From the UHGV virus genome UHGV-0318153: DNA of 64,000 bases. One strand, 5' to 3'. The notes beneath the pieces were generated by a model. The model did no database searches. It saw nothing but the letters and a program-made list of their open reading frames with translations, and was not told the DNA's origin. This document shows, piece after piece, positions 1,180 through 61,900 of the stretch. Position 1 is the stretch's first letter. Every line of letters begins with the position of its first letter. A program made the translations under genes and the position numbers. Origin of the DNA: a virus.

Positions 1180-4117
1180 CTTTATTTACTTTTTGATAAA
1201 TATTACCATCTTCATTATTAACATAAAAATCAATATCGTCTATTGTTATTTCTGTTCCTCTTATTCCAATCATATCAGGATGTTCGAAATAGAAAGTTTC
1301 ATTATATATTTCTCCATATTTATTAATTATATTATCTATATTACAATTTATAAAACTTATAAAGAAATCAGCATCTTTTTCAAATCCTAAATTATAAGCA
1401 GCAACAGCACTTTGAAATAAATTCCAACAATCGATAATTTGTTTATTAACAACATTATCAGGCTTTTCTTTTATTGCTTTATTATTATTAATTATAAGGG
1501 TTATAAGTTTTTGATAAATTGTGATATAATTTTCAGGAATAAGAAGATAAATATCAGAAAGTAATATTTCTTTTATATTTATACTATTAACACCGTCATC
1601 ATATATAACATAACTGTTTGCATCTCCTATTGGAGTTTTCATTGTATACATAGATGTAAATGTTGTAAGTCCAGTAATTTCACATGTTATATCAAGTTTA
1701 TTATAAATTAAATTATACATCTCAGATGAAGAATCATTTCTTATAATTTTTGTTATTGAATATTCAGTTTCATTTTCAATTATATGACCATTTATTACAT
1801 TATATGATTTAACAACAGCAGTTTTTACTTTTGTATTTTCAGGTTTGTGAAAATGAAACTCAGGAGCAACTATTTCTTTTTCATATTTTGTACTAGATGC
1901 TTTTTGACTAATATTAATTGTTTTATTATTATTACTTTCTGTTTGTGTAATTGTAACAATAGCTGTTCTTGAAAAATCTAAATTTTCATCAACAGATATT
2001 TGAGTTGAATTATTACTTACTTTACACCATGATTGCTTAGATGAAACATTATAAGGTACATTAACTTGTTGGTCTTGATAAACACCATTAATATATAATT
2101 TTCTATAACTTTGTATTGTAAAATTTCTTGTAATGCCTTTACTTTCATAATTAGGAACACTTATTTCAGTTTCAGTTACTTCAAGAGTATATCTCCATTC
2201 AGATATTCCAGCAGCTTGTTCTAAACTAATTGGTAATTCTTTATTACTTTCATCTTGAACAAATCTAACACTACCTATTCTTATATTAGTTGTTTTATTT
2301 TCACTAACTTTAATTTCAGCAGTATTATTTGTTGTTGCATCAACACTATAACCATCTCCTTGTATAATTGTTTTAAAAGCAACTTGTACTTTACCACCTG
2401 AAGGACTACCATTTAATAATTTTTGTTTTTCAGATGTTATATTAAATGTTTTTTGACTAGCATTATATGGAAAACTAACTTTATTTGTTCCTTCTGCTAC
2501 TGTAAATGTATATTCATAAGATTCAGTAGCAGCGTTTTGAATAATAGTTACAGTAAATTGTTTTTTACTTTCATCTTGTATAAATGTTGCAGTTCCTTGC
2601 TTTTCTTCTTCATCTTGATTTTCTGAAATATTTATAACATTTTTATTAATAGAAAACCCTTCTGTAATTGAAGAATTATAATTAATTTGAATAGCATCAC
2701 CGTAAGGCTTTCCGTTAACAGTTTTTTGTTTCGTTGATATAACATTTAATGTTTTATTACCTCCAGTAGCTTCTATACGTATAGTATCTGCATCAGTGTT
2801 AAAAGCATAAATATAATCAACTACAGCTGGTTGCTGTACAATTTTAATTCTTACTTCTTTACCTTCAGCATTATTTTGTGTAACAATTAATGTATCTTCT
2901 CGTGTTGTTTCAGATATATTTTCTGTCATATTCCAAACAGCACCGTTTTCGCTTACACCACTTAAAAATCCTCTAACAGAAGTAATAGTAAATGGAACTT
3001 GTTCTGGTTCACCGATAGGTTCATTACCATAATAACCTTGTTTAGTAGATAAAACAGTTATTGTTACTTTTCCATTTAAAGCTGGAATAATACTATTATC
3101 AGTAATTGCTTGTAAACTATATATAATAGTTAATTCTCCAGCTTTTTGTGTAATAGGAATTTCAATATCTTTTGATGTTCCTAATTCAGGTCTATTAATA
3201 ATAAGTTTGCCTGTACGTGCTTTATAATTATTAGCTTCAGCTATAACTTCATTTTTAAATACGTTATAATTAAAACCGTATCCATCAATTTTAGCGTTCC
3301 ATTCAACTGGTATTTCATCTCCTACGGGCAAGCTATCTTTTAATTCTCTTTTACTACTTTTTGTAACATTAAGTTGAATTCTTCCACCTTCTTTTTCAAA
3401 AATAAAAGATTTAGGTTCATATTCAAAATAATATTCATATTCAGTAGTATCTTTAGCTTGATTAATAATAATATCTATTCGTTTATTACTTGCATTTTGT
3501 TCAAAATAAATATTTCCTGTTCTTGGTTCAGAAGAATTAGGTTTAATGGTTAAAGTTTTATTATTATAATTATATATTATCCAATTGGCATCATTTATAT
3601 TATTGTATCTTATATCAAATGGTATATCTTCTGTTTGAATATCATTTCCATCTGATACAGTTTTTGTCGATGTAATTTGAATATTTATTGTTTGTCCTTT
3701 ACCATCATCTTCAATAGTTGTTCCACCAGACATTACAAATTCATAAGTTGTAATAAAATTTGGTGTTTCATATATCCAACCATTACAAACTATACAAGTA
3801 TGTTTATTACCTTCTTCATCAATATAATAATTATTTGCTCCTTTATAATTAGGTATTTTAATTGAATTATATATTTTATCAAGATTAGATTTTATATAAT
3901 CAATAAAATAATCAGCTTTATCAATTTCATTCTTTTCAAAACAAACAATAGCAAGTTGAAATAAATTCCAAAGTTCTATAATATTTTTATTATTTGTTTT
4001 GCAAGAAGCAGAACAATCTTTAATTATATCTATACCATAAGAATATAAACAATATGCAAGTTTATTATAAATACAAATATAATCAAGTGGTATTTTTAAA
4101 TAAGAATATTTATTCAT
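1160..4117 (-). CDS. Large tail fiber / receptor-binding-like protein (985 aa) with a central run of Ig/BACON-like beta repeats. Its N- and C-terminal ~130-aa domains are homologous to each other.
   Basis: Long ORF in the six-frame track. The Thr/Asn-rich repeats are typical of Ig-like tail domains. The N-terminal segment (NKNIIELWNLFQLA...KADYFIDYI) parallels the C-terminal segment (NKQIIDCWNLFQSA...KDADFFISFI). Confidence 0.8.
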   Translation of the reverse strand: MNKYSYLKIPLDYICIYNKLAYCLYSYGIDIIKDCSASCKTNNKNIIELWNLFQLAIVCFEKNEIDKADYFIDYIKSNLDKIYNSIKIPNYKGANNYYIDEEGNKHTCIVCNGWIYETPNFITTYEFVMSGGTTIEDDGKGQTINIQITSTKTVSDGNDIQTEDIPFDIRYNNINDANWIIYNYNNKTLTIKPNSSEPRTGNIYFEQNASNKRIDIIINQAKDTTEYEYYFEYEPKSFIFEKEGGRIQLNVTKSSKRELKDSLPVGDEIPVEWNAKIDGYGFNYNVFKNEVIAEANNYKARTGKLIINRPELGTSKDIEIPITQKAGELTIIYSLQAITDNSIIPALNGKVTITVLSTKQGYYGNEPIGEPEQVPFTITSVRGFLSGVSENGAVWNMTENISETTREDTLIVTQNNAEGKEVRIKIVQQPAVVDYIYAFNTDADTIRIEATGGNKTLNVISTKQKTVNGKPYGDAIQINYNSSITEGFSINKNVINISENQDEEEKQGTATFIQDESKKQFTVTIIQNAATESYEYTFTVAEGTNKVSFPYNASQKTFNITSEKQKLLNGSPSGGKVQVAFKTIIQGDGYSVDATTNNTAEIKVSENKTTNIRIGSVRFVQDESNKELPISLEQAAGISEWRYTLEVTETEISVPNYESKGITRNFTIQSYRKLYINGVYQDQQVNVPYNVSSKQSWCKVSNNSTQISVDENLDFSRTAIVTITQTESNNNKTINISQKASSTKYEKEIVAPEFHFHKPENTKVKTAVVKSYNVINGHIIENETEYSITKIIRNDSSSEMYNLIYNKLDITCEITGLTTFTSMYTMKTPIGDANSYVIYDDGVNSINIKEILLSDIYLLIPENYITIYQKLITLIINNNKAIKEKPDNVVNKQIIDCWNLFQSAVAAYNLGFEKDADFFISFINCNIDNIINKYGEIYNETFYFEHPDMIGIRGTEITIDDIDFYVNNEDGNIYQKVNKDETNNT

Positions 4118-5037: not shown

Positions 5038-5901
5038 TTATTCAGCAAGTTTAGCAAGTACAGCTTCAATTTCAGTAACAGTTGTACCTGTCGGCAAAGC
5101 AATTTGAACAATTTGATTAATAGCAGTATCTACAGTTCTTGTAGTTCTAGGTTCAGCAAACTGAAGAGTATAAACAATAAAACCTGCATCAGCAGAATCG
5201 CTTGCCCGTAGAGGATTAAGAGGATAATGACCACGATAAATAAAATCATCAAATGTATCTGTATATCCCATATCTCCAGCAGCTTGTAACCACATTTCTT
5301 GAATAGCTTTAGCATCGTTAATTGGGGCAACAGCATGAGTAGGGGTCTGAGCAGTTCCAGCTAAATCATCAGCAAATACAATTTCATAATCTTGTCGCTC
5401 ATCATTACCTCTAATAATAACATGACTAGTAAGACCTGTTACTTTAATATCAAGTTCAGCTGCATTAGCTGCAAAATATTTTCTAAAATAAGCTGCAACT
5501 GTGTCTGCTGTATCACCATCTTTCGCCAAATAAGTTCCTGTCCATTTATTTCTATGATTAAAAGGCATGCCTTTCTTAACAAGAATCATAGTATAAGTAA
5601 GACCAGCTGTAGGAGCAGGAATTGTTACATCACAAGCAAATGCAGTACCAGCAGAATAAACACTTTTTACATAACTAAAGTTATTCTTATAGATTGGAAT
5701 ATTCCACATCTTCTGCCCATCGTGATAAAGAATAACTCCTTCTTTTTTAATTTTTGTACCATCACTATCAATGTCTAATCCTGTATTACTAGTTCCTGCA
5801 CCACTTTTAAAAGCTGCAAATGCAATCTGACCAGCAGTCAAAGGAATAGTCTTAGGATAAGCAGTCATAGGAGCTTTTTGTCCTAAAATAAATCTTCTCA
5901 T
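5038..5901 (-). CDS. Putative abundant virion structural protein (287 aa). It carries one copy of the dispersed repeat.
   Basis: ORF with GC-richer, Ala/Gly/Thr-rich codon usage like the capsid gene, located in the head/tail module. Confidence 0.7.
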   Translation of the reverse strand: MRRFILGQKAPMTAYPKTIPLTAGQIAFAAFKSGAGTSNTGLDIDSDGTKIKKEGVILYHDGQKMWNIPIYKNNFSYVKSVYSAGTAFACDVTIPAPTAGLTYTMILVKKGMPFNHRNKWTGTYLAKDGDTADTVAAYFRKYFAANAAELDIKVTGLTSHVIIRGNDERQDYEIVFADDLAGTAQTPTHAVAPINDAKAIQEMWLQAAGDMGYTDTFDDFIYRGHYPLNPLRASDSADAGFIVYTLQFAEPRTTRTVDTAINQIVQIALPTGTTVTEIEAVLAKLAE

Positions 5902-10805: not shown

Positions 10806-13184
10806 TTATTTATCATATTTATTTTTATTAGACTTAGCAATTTTAAGTTTATTATTACTATCAAGAATTTTAGCATTAATTTCTCTATTTTTAAGAGCAG
10901 CTTCAGTTCTATTTTTTTCTCGTTCAGTATTTAGCTTTTCTCTTTCAATAGATTCTTTTATTTCGTCTAGCTTGCCCGTAGGGAATGAAGCATCATCAGA
11001 ACTAAGCATAGCTTTTAAACTTTCTATTTCACTATCAAGATACTTTTCTAATGTTAAAGTTTCTCTATCTTGTTCTCCTTTAGCTTGTATCTTTGCTATT
11101 TCATTCTGTTGTTTCATTTGTTCTATCTGTTGCTCCATTTGCTTCATTGTTTCTTCATGCTTGGTTTTTGCATCTTGTAATTTATCTATAAGACGTTTAA
11201 TCTCAGCACAATTATCGCCTTCAATAGCAGCAACAGCCATACTCATATCTCCATTTTGAGCAGCACTAAAAGCAAATTGTTTATATTGATTTAATTTCTC
11301 TCTTTCTTTAACAGATAGTTTTGCTTTAATAACATAATCTGCATATATATGAGAATTAACATCAAGACTTAAATATCTAATACTTCCTGTATTTTTATCT
11401 TTATATGATGTATTAAGACCATCTATCCAAGCAAGTTTAGTATAATCTAAATCTCTAGCATAATCATGTTCTCTAGCCCAATCAAACATAAACTCAACAA
11501 TAACACTACCCATGCTACCACGAATAACAGCTTCTTCTGTAACACCTTTACCAGCACTATTAGCAATAGCACCATATCGTTGAGGTGTCATATCAACTTT
11601 CATCATAGCTGCTTGTTCATTCTCTTGTAACAGTTGTCCTAATTGAGTAATATAATCATTTTGTCTAGTTTCAAGCATTCTTACTTGTTGGGCTTTTAGC
11701 ATTCCTTGGTCATCTTCATCATCAATATAAAGAACACCATCTGCTGCCATCTTATAAATTACATCATCAGGTTTTGTACCTAATAATGATTTAGCTATCA
11801 TAAGAACATTAAGTTTGTTTTTAGCAATAGCCATTTCTCTATGATAAGCAACAATATTTCCAAATATTTGATATGGTTTAATAATATCAATAATACTAAA
11901 TTTACCATATCCAGGAAGAAGTTCCATCAAACCATTATAAGGAAGTTTACCATTTCTATTATAATCTATTGGTCTAGCTTTAAAAGGATAAATTGAATTA
12001 TGCCTACCTCCAATTCTATCACATTCATAAACTTGTGTATCCCAATACCATTCAATAGAAATATCTCCAATAGCTTTATTTAATTTATAAGTTTCATCAA
12101 CAATTCGAGTTGTAATCAAACCATTATTTTGATAAGTAAGAATTCCTTTTTTAACTTCTCCTTTCCAAACAGTTTTCCAAACATCTATAAGACCTTGATT
12201 TAAATCTCTAGTCATTATAGGAACTTGTTTAATTTCAGTATCATTAAATTTCTTACATATATCAGGAAATGTTTTCTTATAATTATTCCAATACCATGTA
12301 TTATCATATTCTCCACCACGATTACCGTTTTTATAATATGATATTAAATAATCTTTTTCTTTATCTGATAAATCTTCTGAATATTCATCCATAATTTGTT
12401 GTAATGACATTTTTCGTCTTTCAGCAAACATATCAAAATCTTCAACTAATTGATTATCATTTGGAGTAGGAAAAGCATCTCTATTTGAAACAACTCGTTT
12501 ATGTATTGTATTTCCTTTTATTTCTGTATAAGTATAAAAACTACCAAATGTAACCCATTCAAAATATGCTCTAGCATATAAAGCAATACTATCTGTCAAA
12601 TCATCTATAACATCTAATATTGCTTGTCCTTGTGCTGATATATCATCAATATAATTCTCATTAAAATCTTCTATAAATTTATCAATATCTATAGCTTGTT
12701 GAGGATTAAATTCTTCAGGATTACCACCTTGTTGTACAAACGATTGTAATTCTTGTTGTATTCTTTGTGCTATTTGTTGTTGTACAAGCATAGTTAATTC
12801 TTGATTTAATTTTACATTTCTAGCCAATACAACTTCAGGATTATTAGCACTTACAATAAAATCATGAGCATTTTGTATATATTCTCCAACATATCTTCTT
12901 ATAATACCACTAACAATATCATAATTTCTCATTGTTGCTGGAAATCTTTTATATTTTTCTTCTTTAACATTATAAGGATTTAATATCTTCTTATAATCAT
13001 CTTCTGATATATTTTCTTTTAAAAAATTATATTTATCTTCTATATCTTTTGTATCAATACAATTAAGTCCAGAAGATATAACATAATCACAACAATTAGC
13101 ATACCATTCAGGTTTAGCTTTTTCAGCAGCAGAAACTTTCTGTTGAGGAAAATCTACATTTTGTTTATATCCTATAACATCCAT
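10806..13184 (-). CDS. portal protein (792 aa)
   Basis: Size and position are immediately downstream of the large terminase, and the C-terminal tail is coiled-coil/charged. The FPTGKL peptide near the C-terminus is encoded by one copy of the dispersed repeat. Confidence 0.65.
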   Translation of the reverse strand: MDVIGYKQNVDFPQQKVSAAEKAKPEWYANCCDYVISSGLNCIDTKDIEDKYNFLKENISEDDYKKILNPYNVKEEKYKRFPATMRNYDIVSGIIRRYVGEYIQNAHDFIVSANNPEVVLARNVKLNQELTMLVQQQIAQRIQQELQSFVQQGGNPEEFNPQQAIDIDKFIEDFNENYIDDISAQGQAILDVIDDLTDSIALYARAYFEWVTFGSFYTYTEIKGNTIHKRVVSNRDAFPTPNDNQLVEDFDMFAERRKMSLQQIMDEYSEDLSDKEKDYLISYYKNGNRGGEYDNTWYWNNYKKTFPDICKKFNDTEIKQVPIMTRDLNQGLIDVWKTVWKGEVKKGILTYQNNGLITTRIVDETYKLNKAIGDISIEWYWDTQVYECDRIGGRHNSIYPFKARPIDYNRNGKLPYNGLMELLPGYGKFSIIDIIKPYQIFGNIVAYHREMAIAKNKLNVLMIAKSLLGTKPDDVIYKMAADGVLYIDDEDDQGMLKAQQVRMLETRQNDYITQLGQLLQENEQAAMMKVDMTPQRYGAIANSAGKGVTEEAVIRGSMGSVIVEFMFDWAREHDYARDLDYTKLAWIDGLNTSYKDKNTGSIRYLSLDVNSHIYADYVIKAKLSVKEREKLNQYKQFAFSAAQNGDMSMAVAAIEGDNCAEIKRLIDKLQDAKTKHEETMKQMEQQIEQMKQQNEIAKIQAKGEQDRETLTLEKYLDSEIESLKAMLSSDDASFPTGKLDEIKESIEREKLNTEREKNRTEAALKNREINAKILDSNNKLKIAKSNKNKYDK

Positions 13185-15539: not shown

Positions 15540-15950
15540 TTATTTAATTAATAAAAACAATAAAAGCGAAGTCGCTAATCCACCAGCAACTCCGCCATAT
15601 ATAACATTTCTCCTTTTATATTTATCAACATCATGTTGTAATTGTTGATTTATTCTTTCAGTTGCTATAGCAGCATCTTTCATTTTATTATAAGCATCTT
15701 CATATACATCTATTTTCTTATTTTGAAGATAAATTATACTATCTTTTAAAGCTATAATATTATTTTTAAATTTATATTTAATAAATATTTTGTTAGCTTC
15801 TCGAACTTCATCAATACTAATTTTAATACTATCTTGCTGTAGCTTGCCCGTAGGGAATGTAATGCTATCATTACTTACATTCTTGCAATAACTGTCTAAA
15901 CAGAATAACTGTACTATCATTACTAAGATTATCTGCTTTATTGATTTCAT
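15540..15950 (-). CDS. Spanin-like lysis protein (136 aa) with an N-terminal signal/Cys-containing segment and a C-terminal TM helix (u-spanin-like architecture).
   Basis: N-terminus MKSIKQIILVMIVQLFCLDSYC and C-terminal TM GGVAGGLATSLLLFLLIK. It overlaps the preceding small TM gene out of frame, next to the endolysin. Confidence 0.45.
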   Translation of the reverse strand: MKSIKQIILVMIVQLFCLDSYCKNVSNDSITFPTGKLQQDSIKISIDEVREANKIFIKYKFKNNIIALKDSIIYLQNKKIDVYEDAYNKMKDAAIATERINQQLQHDVDKYKRRNVIYGGVAGGLATSLLLFLLIK

Positions 15951-17094: not shown

Positions 17095-17419
17095 TTAAAA
17101 CTCTTAAAACCCAGCCTCTATAATATTTTATATTATTACCTTTTGCAGCTATATTAGTATAATGTCTTATTCTTTCTAATTTATATTTAGCAACAAAAAG
17201 TTCAGCTGAAATAGTTGTATCACATTTATAAGCATTAAGACTATCTTGAGTTCGTCGAAGTAATTCTTTAGTAAGAACAAGTTCTTTTAAACTCGTTGAA
17301 TCTTGCCCGTAGGGAATATAACGTATTTCAGGAACAGGTTTACTATTAAATATTGTAGCAAGTATAATAGTTACAATTCCAATAACAATAGCTATCACAA
17401 GATATAAATCTTTATTCAT
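17087..17419 (-). CDS. small N-terminal-TM protein (110 aa), holin candidate
   Basis: Single N-terminal TM (LYLVIAIVIGIVTIILATIF). It lies in the lysis neighbourhood and contains one dispersed-repeat copy. Confidence 0.45.
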   Translation of the reverse strand: MNKDLYLVIAIVIGIVTIILATIFNSKPVPEIRYIPYGQDSTSLKELVLTKELLRRTQDSLNAYKCDTTISAELFVAKYKLERIRHYTNIAAKGNNIKYYRGWVLRVLNE

Positions 17420-20266: not shown

Positions 20267-20298
20267 ATTATCTAATTGTAGCTTGCCCGTAGGGAATG

Positions 20299-24333: not shown

Positions 24334-24340
24334 TGATATT

Positions 24341-25585: not shown

Positions 25586-25912
25586 ATGAAACAGAAAAAA
25601 GAAAAACCTGAAACTCCAGCTCATGTATTAGCTTTATCCAATGTTGTTAGAAACAATGCTAATATTAGAGGTATCATTATTGAATATCTGAAAAGATGTT
25701 TTGGTGAAGATGTAAATGTATCTTTATTGACAGATAGATTTGTTATTATTAAAGATGGATTTAAACAAGAATATCGTTATAATAATAAGCAATTTCTTGA
25801 ATGTTTTGCTGCTGCTTTTGATGAATTTAGTAATAGAACTGCTGTTTTGTTAGATGAATTTATTGCTAAAGAAGTCAAACGTAGCTTGCCCGTAGAGGAT
25901 AACGCTAAATAA
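25586..25912 (+). CDS. hypothetical protein (108 aa). One dispersed-repeat copy (SLPVED) lies near the C-terminus.
   Basis: ORF. Confidence 0.5.
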   Translation: MKQKKEKPETPAHVLALSNVVRNNANIRGIIIEYLKRCFGEDVNVSLLTDRFVIIKDGFKQEYRYNNKQFLECFAAAFDEFSNRTAVLLDEFIAKEVKRSLPVEDNAK

Positions 25913-26275: not shown

Positions 26276-26725
26276 ATGAATATGAAGAAAGTTGTTATGG
26301 TTGCCATTCCCTACGGGCAAGCTGTTGTAGCTAAAACTAATAAAGAAAAGTTTTTAGATGCTATTGATTGGATTGAAGATTTTTGTAAAAAGTATGATGC
26401 AGATAGAACTGGTTTTCTTGAAGCTGTTGTTAAAGCTCAAGAATGTCCATTAAGTTATGCTTATTTGCTGTCAATCCTCTACGGGCAAGCTACAATAGCT
26501 AAAGATATGACAAAAGATGAAATCAAATATGTTAATTGCGTTGTTAATGATGCTATTAATACTATTGTGAAAATCAATAAATCTTTATGTCATCATATTA
26601 ATAATAGTATGAGCGAGTTTAACAAAATTGCTGATAATAATATTAATGAAATAATGGATAGATTTAAAGATATTCCAACTGATATTCTTGAAGCTATTGT
26701 AAAAAAAAGAAAATCTGAAAAATAA
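26276..26725 (+). CDS. hypothetical protein (149 aa) containing two direct copies of the dispersed repeat (IPYGQAV, LYGQATI)
   Basis: ORF. Confidence 0.5.
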   Translation: MNMKKVVMVAIPYGQAVVAKTNKEKFLDAIDWIEDFCKKYDADRTGFLEAVVKAQECPLSYAYLLSILYGQATIAKDMTKDEIKYVNCVVNDAINTIVKINKSLCHHINNSMSEFNKIADNNINEIMDRFKDIPTDILEAIVKKRKSEK

Positions 26726-30670: not shown

Positions 30671-30769
30671 TCTTACATTTCCCTACGGGCAAGCTACAAT
30701 TTGCAGGAGTAGTTAATACTACTTCTGCTTTTATTAATATTATTGTTTAATTTAAAACTTATGTAAAGT

Positions 30770-36812: not shown

Positions 36813-38169
36813 AACATATATTGATATAGCTAATAAATGGAGAGAAAATAAATGTAAAGGTTGTTGCATACTTCTTGAACCTTATAATCCTGCTATATTA
36901 ATAGAATATATAATGAAAAGAAGTATAGAAAAAAATCCAAATATAAAAGCACTTATTGTAGTTAAAGATTATGATGTTAGAACTCGTATTGTCAATTATT
37001 TAAAAGAAAACAATATAAGTCCTAATAATTATGCTTGTATTACTTCTGTTTATGTAAAAATAGGTGTACATTATGATTATGATATAGCTTTTTATGTTGG
37101 ATTAACTGATATGTATCAAGCAAATTATATTAATAGTATAATTAAATATGGATTATTTATTATAACAACAGATAAAATTCATCCTGATTCTCGTGCTTAT
37201 CTTTATAAATATTTTCCTATATTAAATCAAGCTGATTATGCTGCTAAATATGCAACTAAATATAGCTTGCCCGTAGAGGAAATTCACATTGGAGTACAGT
37301 TTGCTAGACAAGATGAAAAAGAATTATATGATAAATATAGTGATTATATAAATAAAACTATTAATATATTTGGTAGCCTTGAAAATATAAATCGTGCTAG
37401 AGTAGGAGATAAAACTACAGGTCAATCTGCTGAAGCTGTAAGATTATCTATTGCTCAATATAATGGTTGGAATGAACATCTTGATGTAACTATACCTTTT
37501 AATAAGCAAATAGATGATTTATTTAATCCTATTAGTATAGAAGAAAGATGTTCTACTGCTTATAATATTTTTCGTGAACGTAATAATTTAGTAAATAATA
37601 ATGTAAATAAAATACCTATAATTATAGATTTATTAAATGGAGAATTAAAAGATAAAAAAGTAATAATAGTTAGTAAGAATACTATTCTTGCAACAGAAGT
37701 TTATAAAGCTCTTAATAAAAATAATATACCATGTGGTGAATTTCATAATGATATTGAAGCTAGACCTGTTTATGATGAAAATGTTGGAGATTTTATAAGA
37801 TATAAGACTGGTAATCGAAAAGGAGAAGTAAAAAACTTCGCCGCACAAGCTATTTCCAGCCTTTCTGTGCAATCTTTCAACTCAAACAATATTAGAGTAT
37901 TATCCATTAAAAATTGTTCGTCAGACAGCCTAGAAATCACGTGTGATGCGATTATATTCATGTCACCAAATTGTTATAATATAAAAGAGTTCCTATATAG
38001 ATATAATAAACTTACTTTTAATGTTGATAAAATAAAAATCTATAAATTATATATGATAGGTACAAATGAAGAAAATGATTGTAGTCGGCTAAAACCTATT
38101 AATGAAAATCATGAAATAAAAAATATTACAGAGAATGAAAAATATTATGTTCAAAGTTTTGGTAGTTAA
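36805..38169 (+). CDS. hypothetical replication-module protein (454 aa). One dispersed-repeat copy (SLPVEE).
   Basis: Long ORF with no clear catalytic motifs. Confidence 0.55.
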   Translation: MNKTYIDIANKWRENKCKGCCILLEPYNPAILIEYIMKRSIEKNPNIKALIVVKDYDVRTRIVNYLKENNISPNNYACITSVYVKIGVHYDYDIAFYVGLTDMYQANYINSIIKYGLFIITTDKIHPDSRAYLYKYFPILNQADYAAKYATKYSLPVEEIHIGVQFARQDEKELYDKYSDYINKTINIFGSLENINRARVGDKTTGQSAEAVRLSIAQYNGWNEHLDVTIPFNKQIDDLFNPISIEERCSTAYNIFRERNNLVNNNVNKIPIIIDLLNGELKDKKVIIVSKNTILATEVYKALNKNNIPCGEFHNDIEARPVYDENVGDFIRYKTGNRKGEVKNFAAQAISSLSVQSFNSNNIRVLSIKNCSSDSLEITCDAIIFMSPNCYNIKEFLYRYNKLTFNVDKIKIYKLYMIGTNEENDCSRLKPINENHEIKNITENEKYYVQSFGS

Positions 38170-41239: not shown

Positions 41240-42424
41240 ATGAGAAGAAGTGTGAATAATAGTATTATTACTAAAGAACTTATACTATCTAAAGTTAGTC
41301 AAATAAGTATATTTGCAGCTTATACAGGACTATCTATTGAAACTATTCAAGATTGTATAGATAATAATACTATGATTTCTAGTCCTTTTCGCATTGATGA
41401 ACATCCCAGTTTTGGTTTTAGATATGATAATAGAAATAAACTTAAAGGTCGTGACTTCGCCGGGTACTTTTGGGGTGATTGTTTTGATGCAGCCGCTTTT
41501 GTACTTTCTGCTAATAATCAATTTATTAATGTTAGCGAGAAACAATATTTTAGACTTGTTTTAAATCATATAGCAAATACTTTTAAACATATAATTTATG
41601 GAACAGAAAAAGATGAAAATATTAATAATGAAATACAAGTTGGATTAAATATAATTCGTAATAGAAAAAATGTTATAGAACTTGTAATTCGTAATTGGGA
41701 AGATTATGATATAAATTATTGGAAACAATTTGATATAGATATTAGTTTACTTAATACTAATTTTGTTTATCCTATTGACCAATTTTATATTAATCGTAAT
41801 ATTAATCCTGAACCTAAATATTATCATAATAAAAAAGATTTATGTTATGGTTATATATTAGGACAAGATAAACATGGAATATATAACATTAAACTTTATT
41901 TTCCTAATCGTAAAAAAGGTGATGTTAGATTTATTACTAATTGTAATCATATTGAAGGTGTTCTTAATTTTAATACAAACGATAAATATGATTATATAAT
42001 TATAACTAAATCTACTAAAGATAGACTTGCTTTAAAAAGTTATTTAAGCAAGACTACTATGTCATCATTCCTCTACGGGCAAGCTACAATAGGCTTAATT
42101 AATATTCCATGTGAAAGTTATAAATTAAAAGATAGAGAGTATGAATATCTTCTTAATAATATAAAAGATAGATATAATATTATTAGTCTTATGGATAATG
42201 ATATGGCTGGTAAAAAAGAAGCTATATGTTTAAAGAAGGAATTCAATATTACTCCTATACTTATTCCTAAAGAATATGAATGTAAAGATTTTGCTGAATT
42301 AAGACAAAATTATTCTATACAAGTTATTGACAATTTATTTAAAGACGTAATAAATTATATACAAGAAGATGAAAACATTGAAATTGATTGGAATACGGAA
42401 GAGAGCAATACTTTGCCGTTTTAA
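41240..42424 (+). CDS. DnaG-like DNA primase (degenerate zinc-binding motif + Toprim) ending in the SSB-like tail ...NTLPF
   Basis: SPFRIDEHPSFGF (compare DnaG CPFHxExTPSF). Toprim DxD SLMDNDMAGKKEA. Contains one dispersed-repeat copy. Confidence 0.6.
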   Translation: MRRSVNNSIITKELILSKVSQISIFAAYTGLSIETIQDCIDNNTMISSPFRIDEHPSFGFRYDNRNKLKGRDFAGYFWGDCFDAAAFVLSANNQFINVSEKQYFRLVLNHIANTFKHIIYGTEKDENINNEIQVGLNIIRNRKNVIELVIRNWEDYDINYWKQFDIDISLLNTNFVYPIDQFYINRNINPEPKYYHNKKDLCYGYILGQDKHGIYNIKLYFPNRKKGDVRFITNCNHIEGVLNFNTNDKYDYIIITKSTKDRLALKSYLSKTTMSSFLYGQATIGLINIPCESYKLKDREYEYLLNNIKDRYNIISLMDNDMAGKKEAICLKKEFNITPILIPKEYECKDFAELRQNYSIQVIDNLFKDVINYIQEDENIEIDWNTEESNTLPF

Positions 42425-44476: not shown

Positions 44477-44908
44477 ATGGCAAAGAATGTAAGATTTAAT
44501 TTTGTAAAACGTAGCTTGCCCGTAGGGGATGTCAAGAAGGCTAAACCTACACAAAAGATAACAGGAGATATTAATCTTGAATTTGAAGTTATATCTAATA
44601 AAGTATTTGATAGAAATAAAAGTTATTATTCAGTATTTTTTCAAAGTGTAATTATATTTACTGATTATAAAGCGAAATCATATCAAATATTACATAAATA
44701 TGATGCTGAAACTAATGAACGAAGTTATTATGTTTGTCTTTATAAAGATAAAGTTGATAATGCTATTCCATTAGTTAGAGATTATACAGGTGGATATAAA
44801 ATTTATACTAAAGATATATTTTATGATATAACACAAGATACTAATATAGATGTAAAATTAGTTCAAGAAAGAGAAAATCCTAATTGTATTATTTATAAAA
44901 TACGATGA
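44477..44908 (+). CDS. hypothetical protein (143 aa). One dispersed-repeat copy near the N-terminus (SLPVGD).
   Basis: ORF. Confidence 0.5.
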   Translation: MAKNVRFNFVKRSLPVGDVKKAKPTQKITGDINLEFEVISNKVFDRNKSYYSVFFQSVIIFTDYKAKSYQILHKYDAETNERSYYVCLYKDKVDNAIPLVRDYTGGYKIYTKDIFYDITQDTNIDVKLVQERENPNCIIYKIR

Positions 44909-45912: not shown

Positions 45913-46312
45913 TTATAATGGTAGGCATTCCCTACGGGCAAGCTACAATGTACTTAAAAATCATCCTGATTATGGTGTTAATGCTGCACCTACTGTTTGT
46001 TATATATGTAAGAAACCGATGTTTTATACACCTTTCTTTAATACAATGAACAGAGATTGCTCAAAAGAAATTAATACTATCAATGGTGTAGTTTGTCCAG
46101 AATGTAAAGCAAAGTTAGAAATAGCTACGTTGTTTATTAAAACATTTGAAGAAGAAGATACAATTAGATTTGGTAGTTATATATTTATAAATGATAATGC
46201 TCTTGAAAATTATTTTGATAATGTTGAAGCATTGGATAAAATTAATTATATGCATCCAAAAGATTTTGATTTTCTTCGTAATGATATTAATTTAGATTTG
46301 TCGAATTTTTAA
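45899..46312 (+). CDS. Cys-rich hypothetical protein (137 aa). One dispersed-repeat copy at the N-terminus.
   Basis: ORF with CYIC...CPEC. Confidence 0.45.
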   Translation: MKYCSYNGRHSLRASYNVLKNHPDYGVNAAPTVCYICKKPMFYTPFFNTMNRDCSKEINTINGVVCPECKAKLEIATLFIKTFEEEDTIRFGSYIFINDNALENYFDNVEALDKINYMHPKDFDFLRNDINLDLSNF

Positions 46313-50888: not shown

Positions 50889-50925
50889 AAAGGAGGTGAA
50901 TATGAAAAAGATGTAATAGATAGTA

Positions 50926-51109
50926 TAGCTTGCCCGTAGAGGATATGAGATAATGCTACATTCCCTACGGGCAAGATACTGCCAGTAAATGTTATAATTT
51001 AGTTATTATTAATATTGACAATTTAGTTATTGTTGATATTACAGCTTGCCCGTAGGGAAGTGATGATATAGCTAGCTATCATGCCTAGCAATCCTCTACG
51101 GGCAAGCTA
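50926..51109. repeat. Cluster of four dispersed-repeat copies arranged as two inverted-repeat hairpins (R 50926-50944 / F 50961-50975; R 51042-51059 / F 51091-51109)
   Basis: AGCTTGCCCGTAGAGGA...TTCCCTACGGGCAAG and AGCTTGCCCGTAGGGAA...TCCTCTACGGGCAAGCT. The stems are at least 11 bp perfect. Confidence 0.9.
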
Positions 51110-51182
51110 AAATAATCTAATTGATATTGGAAAAATGAAAGATATTAAAGATACTGTTGTTGATTTAAGTATTAAATTTATT

Positions 51183-51220
51183 GCCGCTATTGCTTGTGAA
51201 AGTAGTAGCGGTTTTATTTG
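51183..51220 (+). terminator. Hairpin gccgctaTTGCTTGTGAAAGTAGtagcgg + TTTTATTTG, sharing its loop with the 26764 hairpin
   Basis: Read from the sequence. Confidence 0.45.
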
Positions 51221-52795: not shown

Positions 52796-52842
52796 AGGCG
52801 GATGACTGGTTATTAACTGGTTGTCCGCCTATAATTTTTTTC
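52796..52842 (+). terminator. Terminator hairpin AGGCGGA...TCCGCCT + TATAATTTTTTT between convergent transcription units
   Basis: Read from the sequence. Confidence 0.55.
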
Positions 52843-52960
52843 AGTTACTCCATCTTCAATATTAGCAATAATTCTATCAAGTATATTAATACGAAAATGC
52901 CCATAAGGAGCGGCATGATTATTACCATGTCATTCCCTACGGGCAAGTTTCAGTGAGATA

Positions 52961-55900: not shown

Positions 55901-58900
55901 TTTATTTTTAGTTTTATCAAGGTCATACAATTCTAACAACTTAGACAATTTATTCAAATCATCCATAGTAAGTTTATCACTACCTGTATTAAGCACTCTA
56001 GCTGTACTATCCCAAACCTTATCAAGAATTTTATTAATTGCTTCTATATCTTCTATTTCATCTTCTGATTTAACTTTATCGTTTCTTAAATTATCATAGA
56101 ATTCATATTCATAAATAACAACATCATCATCTTGACTTCTTAATATACCAGCATAAGGTAAACCACTTCTTTTACTAAAATGAAAATTACGAACAGTTTC
56201 TTTTTTAATTCGTTCTATTTGTTCAGCTGTAAATTTTCTACCATCAAGAATACCAAATTCATCACGAGCATTTGCTTGTTCAATAGCAATATTTAAAGCA
56301 GAAGTTTTACTAATAGTTGGGTCATTAAATGCAGTCAAGCAAGCATTGATTTCATTAATAAAATCAGCATCTGGTTTATACATCGCATTAGCTCTCAACC
56401 ATGCTTTAGCTTTTCTATATTCTTTATTTTGCATAAGAATATTCATTGGAATAAGAAGTCGTCCTTCATGGTCACGAGCACCTTCAATATCAGATATTGT
56501 CTTTAAAGCATTATTAAGTTGTTCTTCAAAACCAACTTTAATATTTCTATCAAAGAATAATTCTTTTAAATATCTATTTCTATCAATAAATGCGTATAAT
56601 GTTCTAGCAGCGGTTAAATCTTCATCATCTTTAATTTCATAATTATCATCAAAGTCAGAAGTCATTAAACGAAGTTTAAGATATATTTGATGTATCTTTT
56701 CATCTTGTTCTTCTGTTGGAGTATTACCAATTATATTACTTAATATATCAGATTGTTCTTTCATTAATCTTTTATATTCAGCATATAATTCAGCAACTTT
56801 TGGATTTTTATTATATAATACAGCGTATTGATTAGCAATAGTTTCTCTTGTATAATCAACCATTACTTCATTACCATCAATATCAATATCTTTAATGGGA
56901 ATAAATTGTGATTCTGTAGTTGCAGCTATAAATGCATCATATTCTAATTTAGCTCTTAATGCCTTAACACTAAATTTATCTTTTGTTTCATCTACAGCTT
57001 TAATATATTCTTTATTAAGTTTGTCTTTCATTTCAAACCATTCTTTATTATTTGGCTGAACAAGACGACCATTTTCATCAACAATTTTATTCCAATCAAT
57101 AGATTTACCATTTTTAGCAGCTTCAGCTTTTAAATCAGAAAGCATTTTAGCAAATTGTTGTGCTTCAATTTTACCTCTAAATTCTCCTTCTTTAATAATA
57201 GCTTGACTTTCACCAACAACAGCTTGAACTAATTGATTATGATTAAATGCAATATCTTGTATATTCAAATCAAAAAATCCTGTATCTCCATAAAATGTAA
57301 GAGCATCTTGTAATCCAGATTTAATATTAGGATTAGTAGTGCTACTATTAATAAATTCTCCCCAATAACTTCTTTTAGCTTGAAGTACAATAGTATCATT
57401 ATTCAATTTATTAATAGCTTCTTTTATAGTTTCTAATGCTGCTTTTGTATCTTCATCATAACCTTCAATATTAATATCTCTAAATGAATATCTATCTTTA
57501 AACGATGTGATTGTATTAATAAGAGTAATAAACTTACGTTCAAGATTATTATCTTTCAACACTCTTTCTATAACTCTAGCATCATTTAATTTCAATTCAT
57601 TGCCATCTTCATCAATAGTAAAATGATAAGCATCATATATTAATCTATCAGCAGTAGCTTTTACAAATTTAGCAACAGTAGAAGAAGCAACAGGAAGATT
57701 ATTGGCGATTTCTTTTGTATCTTTATAGTTAATATTAGCATTATTAAGTATCTTCATCATACTTTCAGCTAATTTATTACCGCCAAAACTTTCTTGTCTA
57801 GCAATAGCAACTGTTTGTTTAATAGCAAAACTAGCTGCATCACGTTCTCCAATGCTACTATATCTTTTGCCATATTCCACTACGGGCAAGATACCGTAAT
57901 CACTTTCTGGTTTATAATTAGGATATTCATCAAGAAAATCAATATAATCTTGATAAAGATTACTAGTATTTCCTCTAAGTCTATCGGCTACTTCTTCTGT
58001 AATTTTTGTAGCAACATATTTCTTACCATTTATAGCATTATTTATTATTAATTTATCTCCTGTAAATCCAGTATTACGAAGAATTAATTGCGGTTTATCA
58101 AAGAAATTATTATTTGCAATAGCTAATGCTTCGTTTATGTTATTTGTTTCATCTATAGTTATTTCTGTAGCACCAACAAACTTATCTTTATATAAAGCAT
58201 ATTGTTCAGCAAGTTTTTCACTTTTATATCCATATACAATATCAAATAAAGATTTATATACATTGTTACGAGCAATTGAACTATCTTCTATTGTTTTATT
58301 GGTATCAATTTCATCAAGTTTGTTTAATGGATAATATGTAACATCTTCTATATGATTAATACCATAATATAATTTTGCTGTATTACCACGTCTAATTTTT
58401 ATTATCTTATAAGCTTCATCTTTATTCAATAATCCTAATTTATTAAAATCTTTTGTATTAGCTGTATCATATGTATAAACAGTTATTGAACCATCATTAT
58501 TAAATTCAATATCTTGAGCATGATTTACATTTTTCTTTATAATTTTATCTACATCTACAAATCTGGCAGGAAAATCATCATAATTTTGACGAACAAAACC
58601 AATAATTAATTTTTCTGAAACATTTGCAGTTGGTGTAATAAATCTATAATTATCAAAAGCTAATTTAGTACTAAATCCAATATTCATACCACCAACATTA
58701 GTAGGTTTTAATGGTAAAGTAGAAATAGCACGAGCAATATTACCAACTTTAAAATTATTTCCTTCTACAACATAAGTATATTTTACTAAATCTATTGCAG
58801 CTAATCTAATAATTGGATTACTACTTAAATAAGCTAAATCAAATAAATCATATAAATAATCATTTGTATAATTACCTTGATTAAGTTTAAGTTCATTTGA

Positions 58901-61900
58901 TATATAACCTTTTTGCTTAATAGTAAATTCATTAAATTTATTTACTGATATAAAATCAAATATACCTATATTATCAAAATTCTCTTTAATATAAAGAACT
59001 TTTTGAGCAGGACTTAATTTAGCAAAGGCTAATACTTCTTCTTTAGTTGGATTATTAATATCAGCTATTTTAAAATCAATATTTTTAGTATATTCACTTC
59101 CAATACCAGCAATTCTAGACATTTCATTTTCAATATCTATCTGTAGCTTGCCCGTAGAGGATTGCTTGATTAATACACTACCATCATCATCTAAAGCAAT
59201 AGGATATATAATAGCTGGATTATTATCATTTACATATAATCTCTTAACTAAATATTTTTTATAATCATTATAAAGTTTTTCTGATAGTTTTCCATTTTTT
59301 GTATATTTAGCTATATCATATATAAGTTCTACAAAATTAGGCTCTGCTGTTTCAAATACTTGTTGTCCAACTTTCAATGCAGTAACAGAAGAATATTTCA
59401 ACATAGCAGCAAGAGAAGGATAACTACTATTTTTAATATCAGATTTAGCAAAAGTATTTATACCTTTACTAATACCAGGATAAATAGCTTCAACTACTGG
59501 AACTATTTCACCTTTTTTATTTTCAGCATATAGTTTATTATCATTTGTCAATATATCATCTATTTGTCTAAATATTCTATCTGTAGCATAATAACTAGGT
59601 TTAGCACCAAATTTATCTGCTGTCAATATACTAAGAGTATTATTAACAATACTACCTAATTGATTTAGTTTATTAAATTGCAGAAGAACCATAAAATCAT
59701 GTATCTTCTTTTCTTCTTCTGTCATTTCATTACTAAATCGTTTTACATTTAATTCTCTATCAATAATAGGAAAACCTACATCACCATAAACATTTGTTAT
59801 ATACCCTTTTTCATTATATTTACGATAAACAGCAGAAGCTAAATCTGACATATTTTTACCATCAGTTGTAATCCCCAAAGCAGTAGCAGCGTCATCAAGA
59901 GCTTTTGATAAAGGATTAATATATTCACTATTAGCAAATGATTGACTTTCATTCCAATACTTAACAAGATTATCCATAGCAGGTTGATACATAAAACTAA
60001 TAGCAGTCTTATAATCAATACCAGCATTAATCATAACTTTGAAGGCATTAAATGTATAAGTATTCTCATTATGAATAGCACCTTCTTTCATAACATCAAG
60101 AATATGTGCTGTAGTTTGAGAACTATAAGGAGTTAAAAGATAACCTTCAACATTTTTATTATCTTCACTCCAACCTTGATTTGTAAAATTAATTACGTTA
60201 TTTTCAACTTTACCAAATCTATTTTTTTCTCCTATCTTTTGTTTATCTATTGTTTCTTTATCATATCTAACAGGTATAGCAAACGGCAATCTTATTTTTG
60301 TTCTATTACCAATACTAGCAAATGTATCAAGATTAACAGATATAGCTTTAAGTTTAATACCAGAACTAGCAGATTCTTTCCAATCTAATTGAGTAACAGC
60401 ATCATGATTACCATAAGATTTATCATCAATAACATATTTATTACTAATATTAGCAATCTTCTTCATCCAACTATTAGCTTCAGCAAGATTACTAAATTGA
60501 GATATACCCATATTTTCTTCAAAAGCAGCAGGACTATTAAGAATGTCAATAAAAGTCTGAACTATATTATTATTTCGTACATCTCTACTCACTCTTTCCT
60601 CTACGGGCAAGCTTAACCAAGATACATAATTAGGAAGATTATTATCATTAGCAAACTTTTCAGCTTCATTTAATTGTTCTTTAGTATTTTCTTCAATAAC
60701 ATCTTTTATTTTATTTCTATTAGTTTCGCTTAAAGCAACATTATCATCTTCTTGACTATCAAATAATTCTTGAGTTGCTATATAAGTATCATAAACATTA
60801 TCAAGTATTTTTGTTTGATTTTGTATTTCTCCACTTTCTTTTAAATTATATAGTCTTTCTATAGCAGAATCTATATATTCTTTAGAAGAAATACCATCTT
60901 CTTTTTTACCAATAGCTTGAATTATTTTATGAAGTTCTTTATCTTTAGTTTCTTTTGCTAATTGATATATATTATATTTATCTTTAAATCGATTATCTAA
61001 TGATTTAAGAATTTTAGCTTGATAATCTTCATTTAATTTTTTTCTATCTTCTTTTTCTTTATCTTTAATAAATTTAATAGAGCTTTCTATTTGACCATTA
61101 TATTTACTTAATGCTTTTCTAGCAGCCATACCGACATTATCTTTAATATATCGAATATAGCCTTTTTCATTTAATGGATAATCATTTTCTGTTGGTTCAA
61201 TAACTTTTCCATCTTTATTTAATGTTATATGTTTAGTCATTGCATAAACACTATCAACGTCAAAGTCAGAACCTGTTTGTGTTACCCATTCATCTGGAAC
61301 TACAACTGTACTACCATAAGCATCAGGAAGAAATTCTACAACTTTCATTATAACAATAGATTGTTTACCTTCTGTTGGAATACGATAACCAATCATTGTT
61401 CGTAAATCTTCAGGAACTTCATTAATGTCTATTGGTATTTTCTTTGTTGTTCCATCTTCTTGTTTTATTGTTCTATATAAAGCATTGCTCCATCTTTTTA
61501 ATCGAATTTCAGCATAATAAACAGGAATACCATTTATTTCACCTTGTTTTCTATATTCAAGTTTATGATTATGTTCAGCTTCATGATTTGCAAGATATTC
61601 ACTATCTTTTACTGTATCTTTATCTACAGTAAATCCAAAATCTGATAACTGAGCAGCGTGCCATCCTTCAATAGTTTGACGAGTAATACGTTTATTAAAT
61701 AAAGCATTAGTAACATTTTCAAGTTTTGTACTAACATTATTCATAATTAATGGAAGTTGGTCACTGCCTTCAAGAGCGGTATCAAGAAATTCCATAAGAA
61801 CTCTATCTGCTCCATTTTTTGCCATATTTTCTTTAACAAGCTGCAAGAATACTTTTCTATTTAAACCAACTATAGCACCATCTTTAAGTTTAATATTGCC

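Follow-up and report, generated by a model that had tools for sequence, protein, structure and literature searches.

The Neisseria DUS and the Pasteurellaceae USS are massively over-represented short words with a conserved flank that occur in both orientations, lie in tolerated frames inside ORFs, are born by substitution and often form inverted pairs between genes. The stoperators of cluster A mycobacteriophages are asymmetric sites of ~13 bp with >20 copies across the whole genome; they are bound by an immunity repressor of the L5 gp71 type, a protein with two DNA-reading domains that occupy successive major grooves, and their consensus varies from one related phage lineage to the next (PMC9283540). 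No lysogeny module or repressor is known in crassviruses (PMC8375218), and how crass-like phages are regulated, how they replicate and how they persist over the long term without lysogeny are open questions (PMC8375218, PMC10136315). Here we describe an array of short sites in the window, i.e. the whole stretch of 64,000 nt that was analysed from virus genome UHGV-0318153, which points to a system of recognition sites, genome-wide and so far undescribed, in crAss-like (Intestiviridae) gut phages. The literature searched contained nothing relevant on the sequence itself or on crAssphage motifs, in keeping with the preliminary description, which knew of no equivalent in crAss-like phages.

An exact search for CTACGGGCAAG returned 24 matches in 64 kb, 12 per strand, as had been counted before, and dinucleotide-preserving shuffles gave 0; the cores lie 1-9 nt from the approximate positions given earlier (Table 1). 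Degenerate copies with ≤2 mismatches to CTACGGGCAAG were found at 1 site against 2.2 expected by chance, i.e. decayed copies were not seen. The motif stands out as GC-rich against an AT-rich genome, and the two subfamilies proposed for its 5′ side are real: TTCCCTAC (n = 10) and TCCTCTAC (n = 11), with three odd copies. The 3′ part reads GC-AAG-CTAC(AAT) in this phage, with CTA present in 16/24 copies and CTAC in 10/24. Because this extension is kept in only part of the copies, the strictly conserved unit is ~16-20 bp, so that the repeat itself stands, and its conservation over the full 22 bp does not.

Table 1. The 24 motif copies in the window, their local context and what is found at the same place in relatives and strains
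Feature	Position	Strand	Context	Relatives and strains
Motif copy, odd 5′ variant TCTCCTAC	3317..3338	+	Antisense in ORF 1160-4117(-), read SLPVGD	Missing at aligned cr11_1 position, without gap
Motif copy TCCTCTAC	5195..5216	-	Sense in ORF 5038-5901(-), orthologue of crAssphage gp71	Orthologues show PLAQPD/PLKQPD, length unchanged
Motif copy TTCCCTAC	10965..10986	-	Sense in portal ORF 10806-13184(-), aa 735/792	Corresponds to cr11_1 site 21768, portal gene
Motif copy	15837..15858	-	Sense, at or just before start of ORF 15540-15950(-), upstream of terminase gene	Syntenic with cr11_1 16880 and crAssphage 91292
Motif copy	17296..17317	-	Sense in ORF 17087-17419(-), read IPYGQD	Syntenic with cr11_1 15457 and cr3_1 79747; one core change in strain 110116
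Motif copy	20276..20297	-	Intergenic, sense; fills spacer of ORFs 20299-20853(-) and 19733-20266(-)	
Motif copy	25879..25900	-	Antisense, C-terminus of ORF 25586-25912(+)	
Motif copy	26306..26327	+	Sense, aa 12 of ORF 26276-26725(+)	
Motif copy	26474..26495	+	Sense, aa 68 of ORF 26276-26725(+); with the preceding copy, the only close direct pair seen	
Motif copy	30678..30699	+	Intergenic, sense; 8 nt past stop codon, then hairpin and T-run	
Motif copy	30970..30991	-	Antisense in ORF 30770-31060(+)	
Motif copy	34650..34671	+	Sense, near end of polB segment 33442-34725(+)	Orthologous sites cr11_1 70, crAssphage 10173, cr3_1 61240
Motif copy	37260..37281	-	Antisense in SNF2 ATPase ORF 36805-38169(+)	Orthologous site in 5/5 genera compared
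Motif copy	42068..42089	+	Sense in primase ORF 41240-42424(+)	Orthologous sites crAssphage 16630, cr3_1 53858, Rudgehvirus 65990, cr11_1 87120
Motif copy TCCCCTAC	44509..44530	-	Antisense, aa 13 of ORF 44477-44908(+)	Unrelated sequence in cr11_1, ungapped
Motif copy	45927..45948	+	Sense, between stop of ORF 45187-45912 and likely ATG at ~45948	
Inverted pair 1, left arm	50923..50944	-	Intergenic	
Inverted pair 1, right arm	50960..50981	+	Intergenic	Two changes in strain 110116
Inverted pair 2, left arm	51039..51060	-	Intergenic	
Inverted pair 2, right arm	51091..51112	+	Intergenic, ~280 bp upstream of RepL-like ORF 51382-52194	
Motif copy	52932..52953	+	Intergenic, 14 nt beyond stop of RNAP ORF 52961-63994(-), convergent junction	
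Motif copy, odd variant TTCCACTAC	57875..57896	+	Antisense in RNAP ORF, aa 2035	
Motif copy	59141..59162	-	Sense in RNAP ORF, aa 1613, read SSTGKL	Missing at aligned position in four relatives
Motif copy	60596..60617	+	Antisense in RNAP ORF, aa 1128, read SLPVEE	Orthologous sites cr11_1 67942, crAssphage 36954; near-compatible W-SIEE / LPIEL in cr3_1 / Rudgehvirus, without motif

Gene identities were assigned by tblastn correspondence to annotated relatives, which agreed with the earlier naming of the portal, primase, polB and RNAP genes and also identified the SNF2 ATPase gene; four sites had been placed in the giant RNAP gene, and the cores at 57880, 59147 and 60601 do lie inside it, whereas the one at 52937 lies outside. 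Seven copies are intergenic (cores at 20282, 30683, 50929, 50965, 51045, 51096 and 52937), and the cores at 15843 and 45932 sit at doubtful ORF starts. Sense copies in ORFs use all three frames (PTGKL/STGKL, YGQA, LRAS), and antisense copies use only the frame without TAG (SLPV-E/G), a usage that the preliminary description had also reported. The use of several frames, both strands and spacers rules out a protein motif; together with a core that is kept while its flanks diverge, it bears out the signal at the DNA level claimed before. Recurrent peptides such as SSTGG, LYGG and PPVED, otherwise mistakable for protein motifs, are accounted for by this DNA motif. Within the species and outside one intergenic cluster, only 1/99 core positions was changed in a strain, compared with 6% in the 100-nt flanks, which indicates at the sequence level that the core is under purifying selection inside the species. 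Several copies had been thought to lie near protein termini, but positions inside ORFs are near uniform (P = 0.62 for antisense copies), with a mild shift of sense copies toward the first half (P = 0.013), and clustering at termini is ruled out.

All seven Intestiviridae genomes that were examined have the core TCC-Y-Y-TAY-R-GGG in common, at 19-33 copies each, among them cr11_1 (33), p-crAssphage (31), cr3_1 (27), Rudgehvirus (22) and crAss002 (19), and 78 of 80 Intestiviridae loci of ~20 kb from IMG/VR contain four copies or more (range 4-14 per locus). The 3′ flank is particular to each lineage, and many distinct flanks, about a dozen by our reading, follow the one core in the IMG/VR loci. 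In this phage and several relatives, two YTAC half-sites are placed about one helical turn apart; the arrangement is a CTAC-N7-CTAC tandem in this phage, crAssphage and cr3_1, and TTTACAG-N5-TTTACAG instead in Rudgehvirus. The core of the SNF2, primase, polB and RNAP sites is retained across up to five genera while the flanks diverge. Judged from these comparisons, the 24 copies are the lineage-specific version of a family-wide cis-element and not a private repeat.

The sites are spaced more evenly than random (CV of 0.46-0.57 vs 0.87 expected, Fisher P = 5e-9). Non-coding DNA makes up ~7.5% of the sequence, and 35 of 137 sites fall in it, outside long ORFs, an enrichment with P = 1e-10; the other ~75% of sites are inside ORFs, where 58 are sense and 44 antisense, near what open frames allow. 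Ten of the 24 copies in this phage run antisense to the genes around them. Intergenic single sites are sense in 18 cases and antisense in 3 (a hand count from annotations, partly non-independent), 23 of 24 close pairs are inverted, intergenic close pairs are head-to-head in 14 of 15, and the orientation of neighbours switches 90 times where 69.9 were expected (z = 3.5). The intergenic sense bias and the head-to-head pairs hint at a direction-dependent process. The family-wide core, the even spacing and the inversion of close pairs go beyond the preliminary description.

With middling confidence, we read the array as sites recognised by a sequence-specific DNA-binding factor that the phage itself encodes and whose specificity evolves together with them. 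Binding sites for a phage protein had been among the candidates named before, and this remains the leading reading, given the signal at the DNA level and the core kept at orthologous sites. The anatomy of the sites, their conserved core, their birth by substitution, their regular spacing and their dependence on phage lineage are observed; that a phage-encoded protein reads them, and does so on DNA, we infer. The element is an asymmetric two-part site, in which a shared core is followed by a lineage-specific 3′ part, and the reader might be a monomer with two reading heads or a tandem dimer, with a specificity that would change together with all sites of one genome. Selection would maintain about one site per 3 kb genome-wide, and new sites would form via point substitution wherever the coding sequence allows, and could thus lie in spacers or in any open frame of an ORF. 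A single function in binding double-stranded DNA does not by itself explain the need for even spacing. That the array serves to punctuate the whole genome, or to control its transcription or replication, by analogy with stoperators, is a tentative suggestion of low probability. Among the early-region ORFs, no DNA-binding candidate was indicated by Pfam or PHROG assignments. Two RepL-like winged-helix paralogues are encoded here (23743-24333 and 51382-52194), with a four-copy cluster upstream of one of them; such paralogues were found in only three motif-bearing genomes, and a six-member profile finds none in motif-bearing cr3_1, Rudgehvirus and crAss002, which rules them out as the universal binder.

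A small mobile insertion element of 18-21 bp, tolerated as in-frame insertions of 6-7 codons, had been proposed earlier, and a GC-rich motif at high copy number in an AT-rich genome, perfect throughout, could look like one; p-crAssphage moreover has a separate GC-rich hairpin module at some of its sites, two of them inside ORFs. Of 129 pairwise comparisons between a present site and an aligned position without one, however, 55 had a net gap of 0 and 78 one of no more than ±1 residue, without a peak at +6 or +7 residues. Since orthologues lacking a site keep the same length, the sites arise by substitution. Neither the exact 18- or 21-bp indels that an insertion should leave in relatives nor any presence/absence polymorphism among strains 90-99% identical was seen, some sites are orthologous across five genera, and at crAssphage 6026 the hairpin module is fixed, in 18/18 strains where recovered, so that a mobile origin is refuted for the core motif and scarcely credible overall. 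It had also been suggested that the copies are nicking or recognition sites of the encoded HNH or GIY-YIG endonucleases; these genes are sporadic and therefore cannot account for a motif conserved across the family. One example, ORF 35042-35728, is missing from a 98.7%-identical strain. A word imposed by the host, whether for Chi-like protection, for uptake or as a restriction/modification site, would match the statistics of Chi and DUS/USS, with about one copy per 3 kb, both orientations, copies in ORFs and inverted pairs. Yet three crassviruses that share B. cellulosilyticus as their host are in three different states, with different motifs or none, Kehishuvirus tikkala has the same word as crAss001, which grows on another species, and many lineage-specific flanks on a 12-20-bp site occur inside one phage family. 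A scan of bacterial genomes gave, among the matches listed, single scattered hits in unrelated taxa and no multi-copy contigs. The motif tracks phage lineage and not host; the same-host comparison and the bacterial matches listed speak against a host-derived word, which we reject, and host imposition in general is largely refuted and very improbable.

Two further readings assign the sites to single strands. They may be substrates of a DNA transaction on one strand, either primase start sites or nick and recombination-initiation sites (T5, phiKMV, tf), and both strands would then have to carry them at intervals; going by the sequence features, we consider this unlikely, though worth weighing beside the DNA-binding factor. 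Even spacing on both strands with alternating neighbours would agree with it, as would a specificity that tracks phage lineage, stable mini-hairpins of the GCGWAGC type directly 3′ of the core in several lineages, and a family that encodes a DnaG-type primase, ligase, RecT and exonuclease. In the primase version, a pyrimidine-rich template 5′ of a CTA/TTA triplet could yield a purine-rich primer, and the invariant centre YTA/CTA does follow a TCCTY tract, an arrangement which we take to resemble DnaG-type initiation triplets. Replicative primases are known to use trinucleotides, however, rather than 12-20-nt words; inverted pairs 26-50 bp apart, if nicked in both arms, would come near to double-strand breaks, and no strand switch is visible around a putative origin. 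The other reading, in which the element works at the level of RNA or of an extruded single strand as a small core hairpin (stem YCCTY/GGGGR, loop TACG), is less probable still. The long hairpins of inverted pairs would then stabilise, terminate or process transcripts, and sense and antisense copies could pair in trans. Most variants give a fold of -5 to -12 kcal/mol, and only with the forward strand; inverted pairs fold at -29 to -38 kcal/mol with z of about -5 to -6 (pair 1, -29.9 kcal/mol, z = -5.5; pair 2, -34.8 kcal/mol); in strain 110116, G has changed to A in parallel in the two arms of pair 2, the outermost stem position pairs slightly above shuffled controls, and the near-uniform inversion of close pairs and the sense bias of intergenic single sites would fit as well. 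In p-crAssphage, 8 of 31 sites have a GC-rich hairpin module of 25-35 nt between the core and the second CTAC box, which would be easier to accommodate for a reader of single-stranded DNA or RNA than for a protein binding double-stranded DNA. Against this, 44 of 102 copies in ORFs are antisense to the mRNA, and this phage's variants hardly fold (-0.6 and -3.8 kcal/mol) while staying perfect, i.e. sequence rather than fold is retained. Covariation is weak and limited to one position: stem positions 1-5 pair by composition, and position 6 alone exceeds the controls, so that a conserved hairpin is ruled out. No T-run accompanies the inverted pairs, and real terminators are present close by, at 51183-51212 and 52794-52832, which excludes the pairs as canonical terminators; no Rfam family matched in the window or in p-crAssphage.

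Under the reading as sites of a phage-encoded DNA-binding factor, the motif predicts a specific trans-acting factor that should be retrievable with an oligonucleotide. Among human gut viruses, crass-like phages rank first in abundance. Each genome offers about 30 mapped sites for ChIP and for mapping of nicks, primers and RNA ends, with crAss002 and Rudgehvirus jaberico in culture, and Intestiviridae genomes have a compact signature in the 12-bp core. The motif may also define specificity groups among co-circulating phages. A bolder version, which we regard as improbable, is that a phage protein bound at ~30 even sites throttles or partitions transcription and replication in the manner of stoperators, with the flank as the code of an immunity or compatibility group; if true, the lineage-specific flank would define mutually exclusive groups of this kind, and the carrier-state persistence of formally virulent Intestiviridae phages, p-crAssphage included, which is so far unexplained, would become accessible.

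Compared with known systems, the array shares with DUS/USS both orientations, copies inside ORFs, inverted pairs and origin by substitution, but those words belong to a bacterial genome and its competence machinery, whereas this motif tracks phage lineage and, among the matches listed, has only single scattered bacterial matches. As with Chi, there is one site per few kb in both orientations, and the protection of a permuted linear genome from either end is a possible shared logic; Chi is a word of 5-8 nt set by the host RecBCD/AddAB, and the present one has 12-20 bp and differs among phages of one host. T7-type promoters are likewise words of ~20 bp, present ~20-30 times, in which a core is conserved and other positions are lineage-specific, but they lie between genes and point with transcription, while here most copies are in ORFs and 10/24 are antisense; transcripts of the virion RNAP of the crass-like phage phi14:2 showed no shared upstream motif. 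REP/BIME, Rickettsia RPE and mitochondrial GC clusters or byps are also GC-rich short repeats in AT-rich genomes, and the hairpins of inverted pairs and the GTAG on the reverse strand recall REP/BIME-type elements and REPs, respectively. REPs are extragenic palindromes, however, and this motif is mostly genic and in this phage barely palindromic; RPE, GC clusters and byps are discrete insertions, and this motif arises without indels. The annotation of the relatives, in a check that was not exhaustive, contains no RAYT or IS200-type gene. Stoperators sit in promoters and in short gaps between genes, whereas here the majority of sites are genic (35/137 outside long ORFs). They also follow the direction of transcription; here the sense:antisense ratio is ~57:43 in ORFs and 18:3 for intergenic singles. 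They are bound by the immunity repressor of a temperate phage, and crassviruses are without a known lysogeny module (PMC8375218). Although not all of these defining features are shared, the stoperators of mycobacteriophages are the closest known architecture: both have an asymmetric core at high copy number (24 in 64 kb here, 19-33 per related genome), a conserved and a variable part, and a consensus that diverges by lineage.

An exact search of the 64-kb window, whose G+C content is 25–31%, returned 24 matches to CTACGGGCAAG, 12 per strand, and none were found in 100 dinucleotide-preserving shuffles of the window. Aligned in one orientation, the copies read (A/T)T-TCCC or TCCT-CTACGGGCAAG-CTA(C)(A)(A)(T), and their 5′ sides form two subfamilies, TTCCCTAC (n = 10) and TCCTCTAC (n = 11), with three odd copies. 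There were no decayed copies in the window: with up to two mismatches allowed, a single further site turned up, whereas 2.2 would be expected. Seven copies are intergenic and about 17 fall within ORFs. Genes point leftward as far as ∼20.3 kb and rightward from there to ∼52 kb, and the giant RNAP ORF that follows is leftward once more. Sense copies use all three reading frames, and the sole frame used by antisense copies is the one avoiding TAG. The exact copies, their alignment and this frame usage therefore bear out the preliminary description of the repeat with small corrections: a 22-bp repeat had been proposed, which is real but has a conserved unit of ∼16–20 bp, and three of the four copies assigned to RNAP are inside its ORF while the fourth is not.

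The window comes from a crass-like phage in the Intestiviridae (subfamily Crudevirinae), with conserved genes ∼76% identical to those of cr11_1 (Delmidovirus) and ∼75% identical to those of p-crAssphage. By k-mer counts, every relative examined has an equally over-represented word; chance alone would give no more than 0.15 copies per genome (see the table). These words share a core, TCC-Y-Y-TAY-R-GGG, followed by a lineage-specific 3′ part, and the window motif is one such variant. Among 80 IMG/VR loci of ∼20 kb fetched by a SNF2 ATPase profile search, 78 contained at least four copies of the core (4–14 per locus), and their distinct 3′ flanks were many, about a dozen when consensus lines were read by eye. 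Several variants contain a pair of direct half-sites separated by about one helical turn, CTAC-N7-CTAC in the window, crAssphage and cr3_1, and TTTACAG-N5-TTTACAG in Rudgehvirus.

Motif variants and coordinates of features discussed in the text
Genome	Feature	Variant or coordinates	Sites
cr11_1	motif variant	TCCTCTACGGGG(GGTCTCA)	33
p-crAssphage	motif variant	(CCA)TCCTCYACGGGGRGTC	31
cr3_1	motif variant	TTCCTYTACGGGGGAAC	27
Rudgehvirus jaberico (cultured)	motif variant	CTCCTYTACAGGGGAGTTTACAG	22
crAss002 (cultured, subfamily Churivirinae)	motif variant	CTCCTTTAYGGGGGAA	19
window	orthologous site, SNF2 ATPase	37271	
window	orthologous site, primase	42078	
window	orthologous site, polB	34660	
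window	orthologous site, RNAP	60606	
window	giant RNAP ORF	52961-63994	
window	ORF with two direct copies	26276-26725	
window	inverted pair 1	50929/50965	
window	inverted pair 2	51045/51096 (51045-51106)	
window	intrinsic terminators	51183-51212, 52794-52832	
window	RepL-like paralogues	23743-24333, 51382-52194	
window	GIY-YIG endonuclease ORF	35042-35728	
window	locus of the GIY-YIG ORF absent from the 98.7%-identical strain	35005-35715	
p-crAssphage	GC-rich modules (examples)	6021-6075, 28077-28140, 28172-28230, 44900-44958	
p-crAssphage	GC-rich modules (further examples)	58670-58732, 93610-93672, 95864-95925	
p-crAssphage (L014)	annotated dUTPase-gene intron with HNH gene	24167-25851	

In IMG/VR, the exact 17-mer of the window occurred in only four contigs, all from one metagenome; they are strains 90–99% identical to the window and show additional copies in the genome part beyond it. 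With one intergenic cluster left out, 1 of 99 core positions was changed in the ∼91%-identical strain, and ∼6% of the 100-nt flanks of the same sites. Within the species to which the window belongs, motif sites are thus stable from strain to strain. In the ∼91%-identical strain, drift has affected three of the four members of the intergenic cluster but not the genic copies. Both arms of inverted pair 2 carry the same G-to-A change there (CTACGGGC to CTACAGGC), which may be either a hairpin-compensatory change or conversion between the arms. Elsewhere in the window, a GIY-YIG endonuclease ORF stands directly 3′ of a polB segment, and its precise absence from the 98.7%-identical strain marks it as a homing-endonuclease insertion of recent mobility, which either splits polB or abuts it. 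For the annotated intron within the dUTPase gene of p-crAssphage, Rfam at gathering thresholds showed neither a group I nor a group II match.

Spacing was measured as the coefficient of variation of inter-site gaps after merging pairs <300 bp apart. It was 0.46–0.57 in each of five genomes against 0.87 expected (Fisher P = 5e-9, for tests not fully independent because the genomes share ancestry), and the widest gap between window sites is 5.8 kb against ∼11 kb expected. Outside long ORFs we found 35 of 137 sites, compared with ∼7.5% non-coding DNA (P = 1e-10); inside ORFs the relative position of sites is near uniform and their orientation (58 sense, 44 antisense) is near what open frames allow. 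Close pairs, at most 300 bp apart in six genomes, are inverted in 23 of 24 cases, and 14 of the 15 intergenic ones are head-to-head, with TCC ends facing. The only direct pair lies in a 149-aa ORF of the window with a weak DUF6563 match, its copies being 168 bp apart. Orientation alternates in 66 of 110 distant neighbours (P = 0.02), and single intergenic sites between co-directional genes were 18 sense and 3 antisense in a hand count from annotations, in which some sites are orthologous and thus non-independent.

Site orthology was followed among five genomes with tblastn coordinate maps. Certain sites have orthologues in several genera, at most all five, with the core preserved and neighbouring nucleotides largely diverged, and many others are lineage-specific; the flank differs from genome to genome, which means that the sites within any one genome changed together. 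A mobile 21-bp element had been put forward in the preliminary description. We compared 129 pairwise cases in which a site was absent at an alignable orthologous position; the net gap, taken over ±5 residues around that position, was 0 in 55 and within ±1 in 78, and no peak at 6–7 residues was seen. Therefore sites arise in place by substitution, and a mobile mini-insertion, with net gaps centring on 0, is effectively rejected and scarcely credible. New sites often arise where the protein is already nearly compatible, e.g. RNAP LP(V/I)E(E/D). A word imposed by the host is very improbable too. Three crassviruses from the same B. cellulosilyticus host differ in motif: the Intestiviridae core is present in Rudgehvirus, whereas Kehishuvirus tikkala carries CTTCTGGAG, a word it shares with its congener crAss001 on B. 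intestinalis, and a comparable word was not found in Kolpuevirus frurule. Moreover, when 185,579 genomes of bacteria and archaea were scanned for the crAss002 variant, the matches listed were all isolated hits in taxa unrelated to one another. Thus the determinant is phage-borne, and host imposition is effectively rejected, since same-host crassviruses carry different words or none. CTTCTGGAG is a different over-represented 9-mer that contains a CTGGAG word and occurs on both strands, with 27 copies per 100 kb in crAss001 and 12 per 50 kb in K. tikkala against ∼0.2 expected per 50 kb; in these two genomes even spacing was not significant and close pairs were absent.

On these data the sites would form a recognition array for a phage-encoded, sequence-specific factor, each joining a conserved half to a lineage-specific half, and would be maintained at about one per 3 kb, positioned wherever coding permits. 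We put the chance that this reader is a DNA-binding protein at about even; within that reading, control of transcription or replication across the whole genome, in the manner of stoperators, is conceivable but unlikely. Action at the RNA level is distinctly improbable. Most variants could form a small forward-strand hairpin (−5 to −12 kcal/mol) with a YCCTY/GGGGR stem including G-U pairs and a TACG loop; the window variant folds only at −0.6 and −3.8 kcal/mol, though perfectly conserved, and pairing exceeded shuffled controls at the outermost stem position only (18 lineages). For the two inverted pairs of the window, folding energies on both strands ranged from −29 to −38 kcal/mol, and neither pair has T-runs. 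Canonical intrinsic terminators, with 13- and 18-bp stems and then T-runs, flank a RepL-like ORF in a convergent junction; the phage therefore uses ordinary terminators, distinct from the motif pairs. Sites of priming, nicking or recombination are a doubtful reading. At 8 of its 31 sites, p-crAssphage separates the core from a second CTACTAAT box by a 25–35-nt GC-rich module, which a single-stranded reader would accommodate more easily; the modules contain GCGWAGC mini-hairpins, all six GCGWAGC words of this genome fall in them (read by eye), and one is fixed in 18 of 18 strains where recovered. The window has no such module. Two of the p-crAssphage module sites are inside ORFs, and akin modules occur in cr3_1 and crAss002.

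For the putative DNA-binding reader, no candidate can be named. Two divergent RepL-like paralogues occur in the window, and likewise in cr11_1 and crAssphage, and one of the two is preceded, at a distance of ∼280 bp, by a four-copy motif cluster; a profile search found no homologues in cr3_1, Rudgehvirus or crAss002. Pfam and PHROGs did not detect the window paralogues, and early-region ORFs had no informative match in either.

Full-text literature searched for the sequences themselves gave no description of the motif, and it is not described in the phi14:2 RNAP preprint, the 2023 Crassvirales review, the 2021 crass-like genome survey or the crAss001 persistence paper. The statistics resemble those of DUS/USS and Chi, but unlike these the motif fails the host-dependence test. 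Among known systems, the stoperators of Cluster A mycobacteriophages come closest in architecture: an asymmetric 13-mer is present in >20 dispersed copies, its consensus varies with lineage, and the repressor has two domains (PMC9283540). In contrast to stoperators, the majority of the present sites fall within ORFs, and their orientation shows no clear overall link to transcription, being mixed in ORFs and mainly sense at single intergenic sites.
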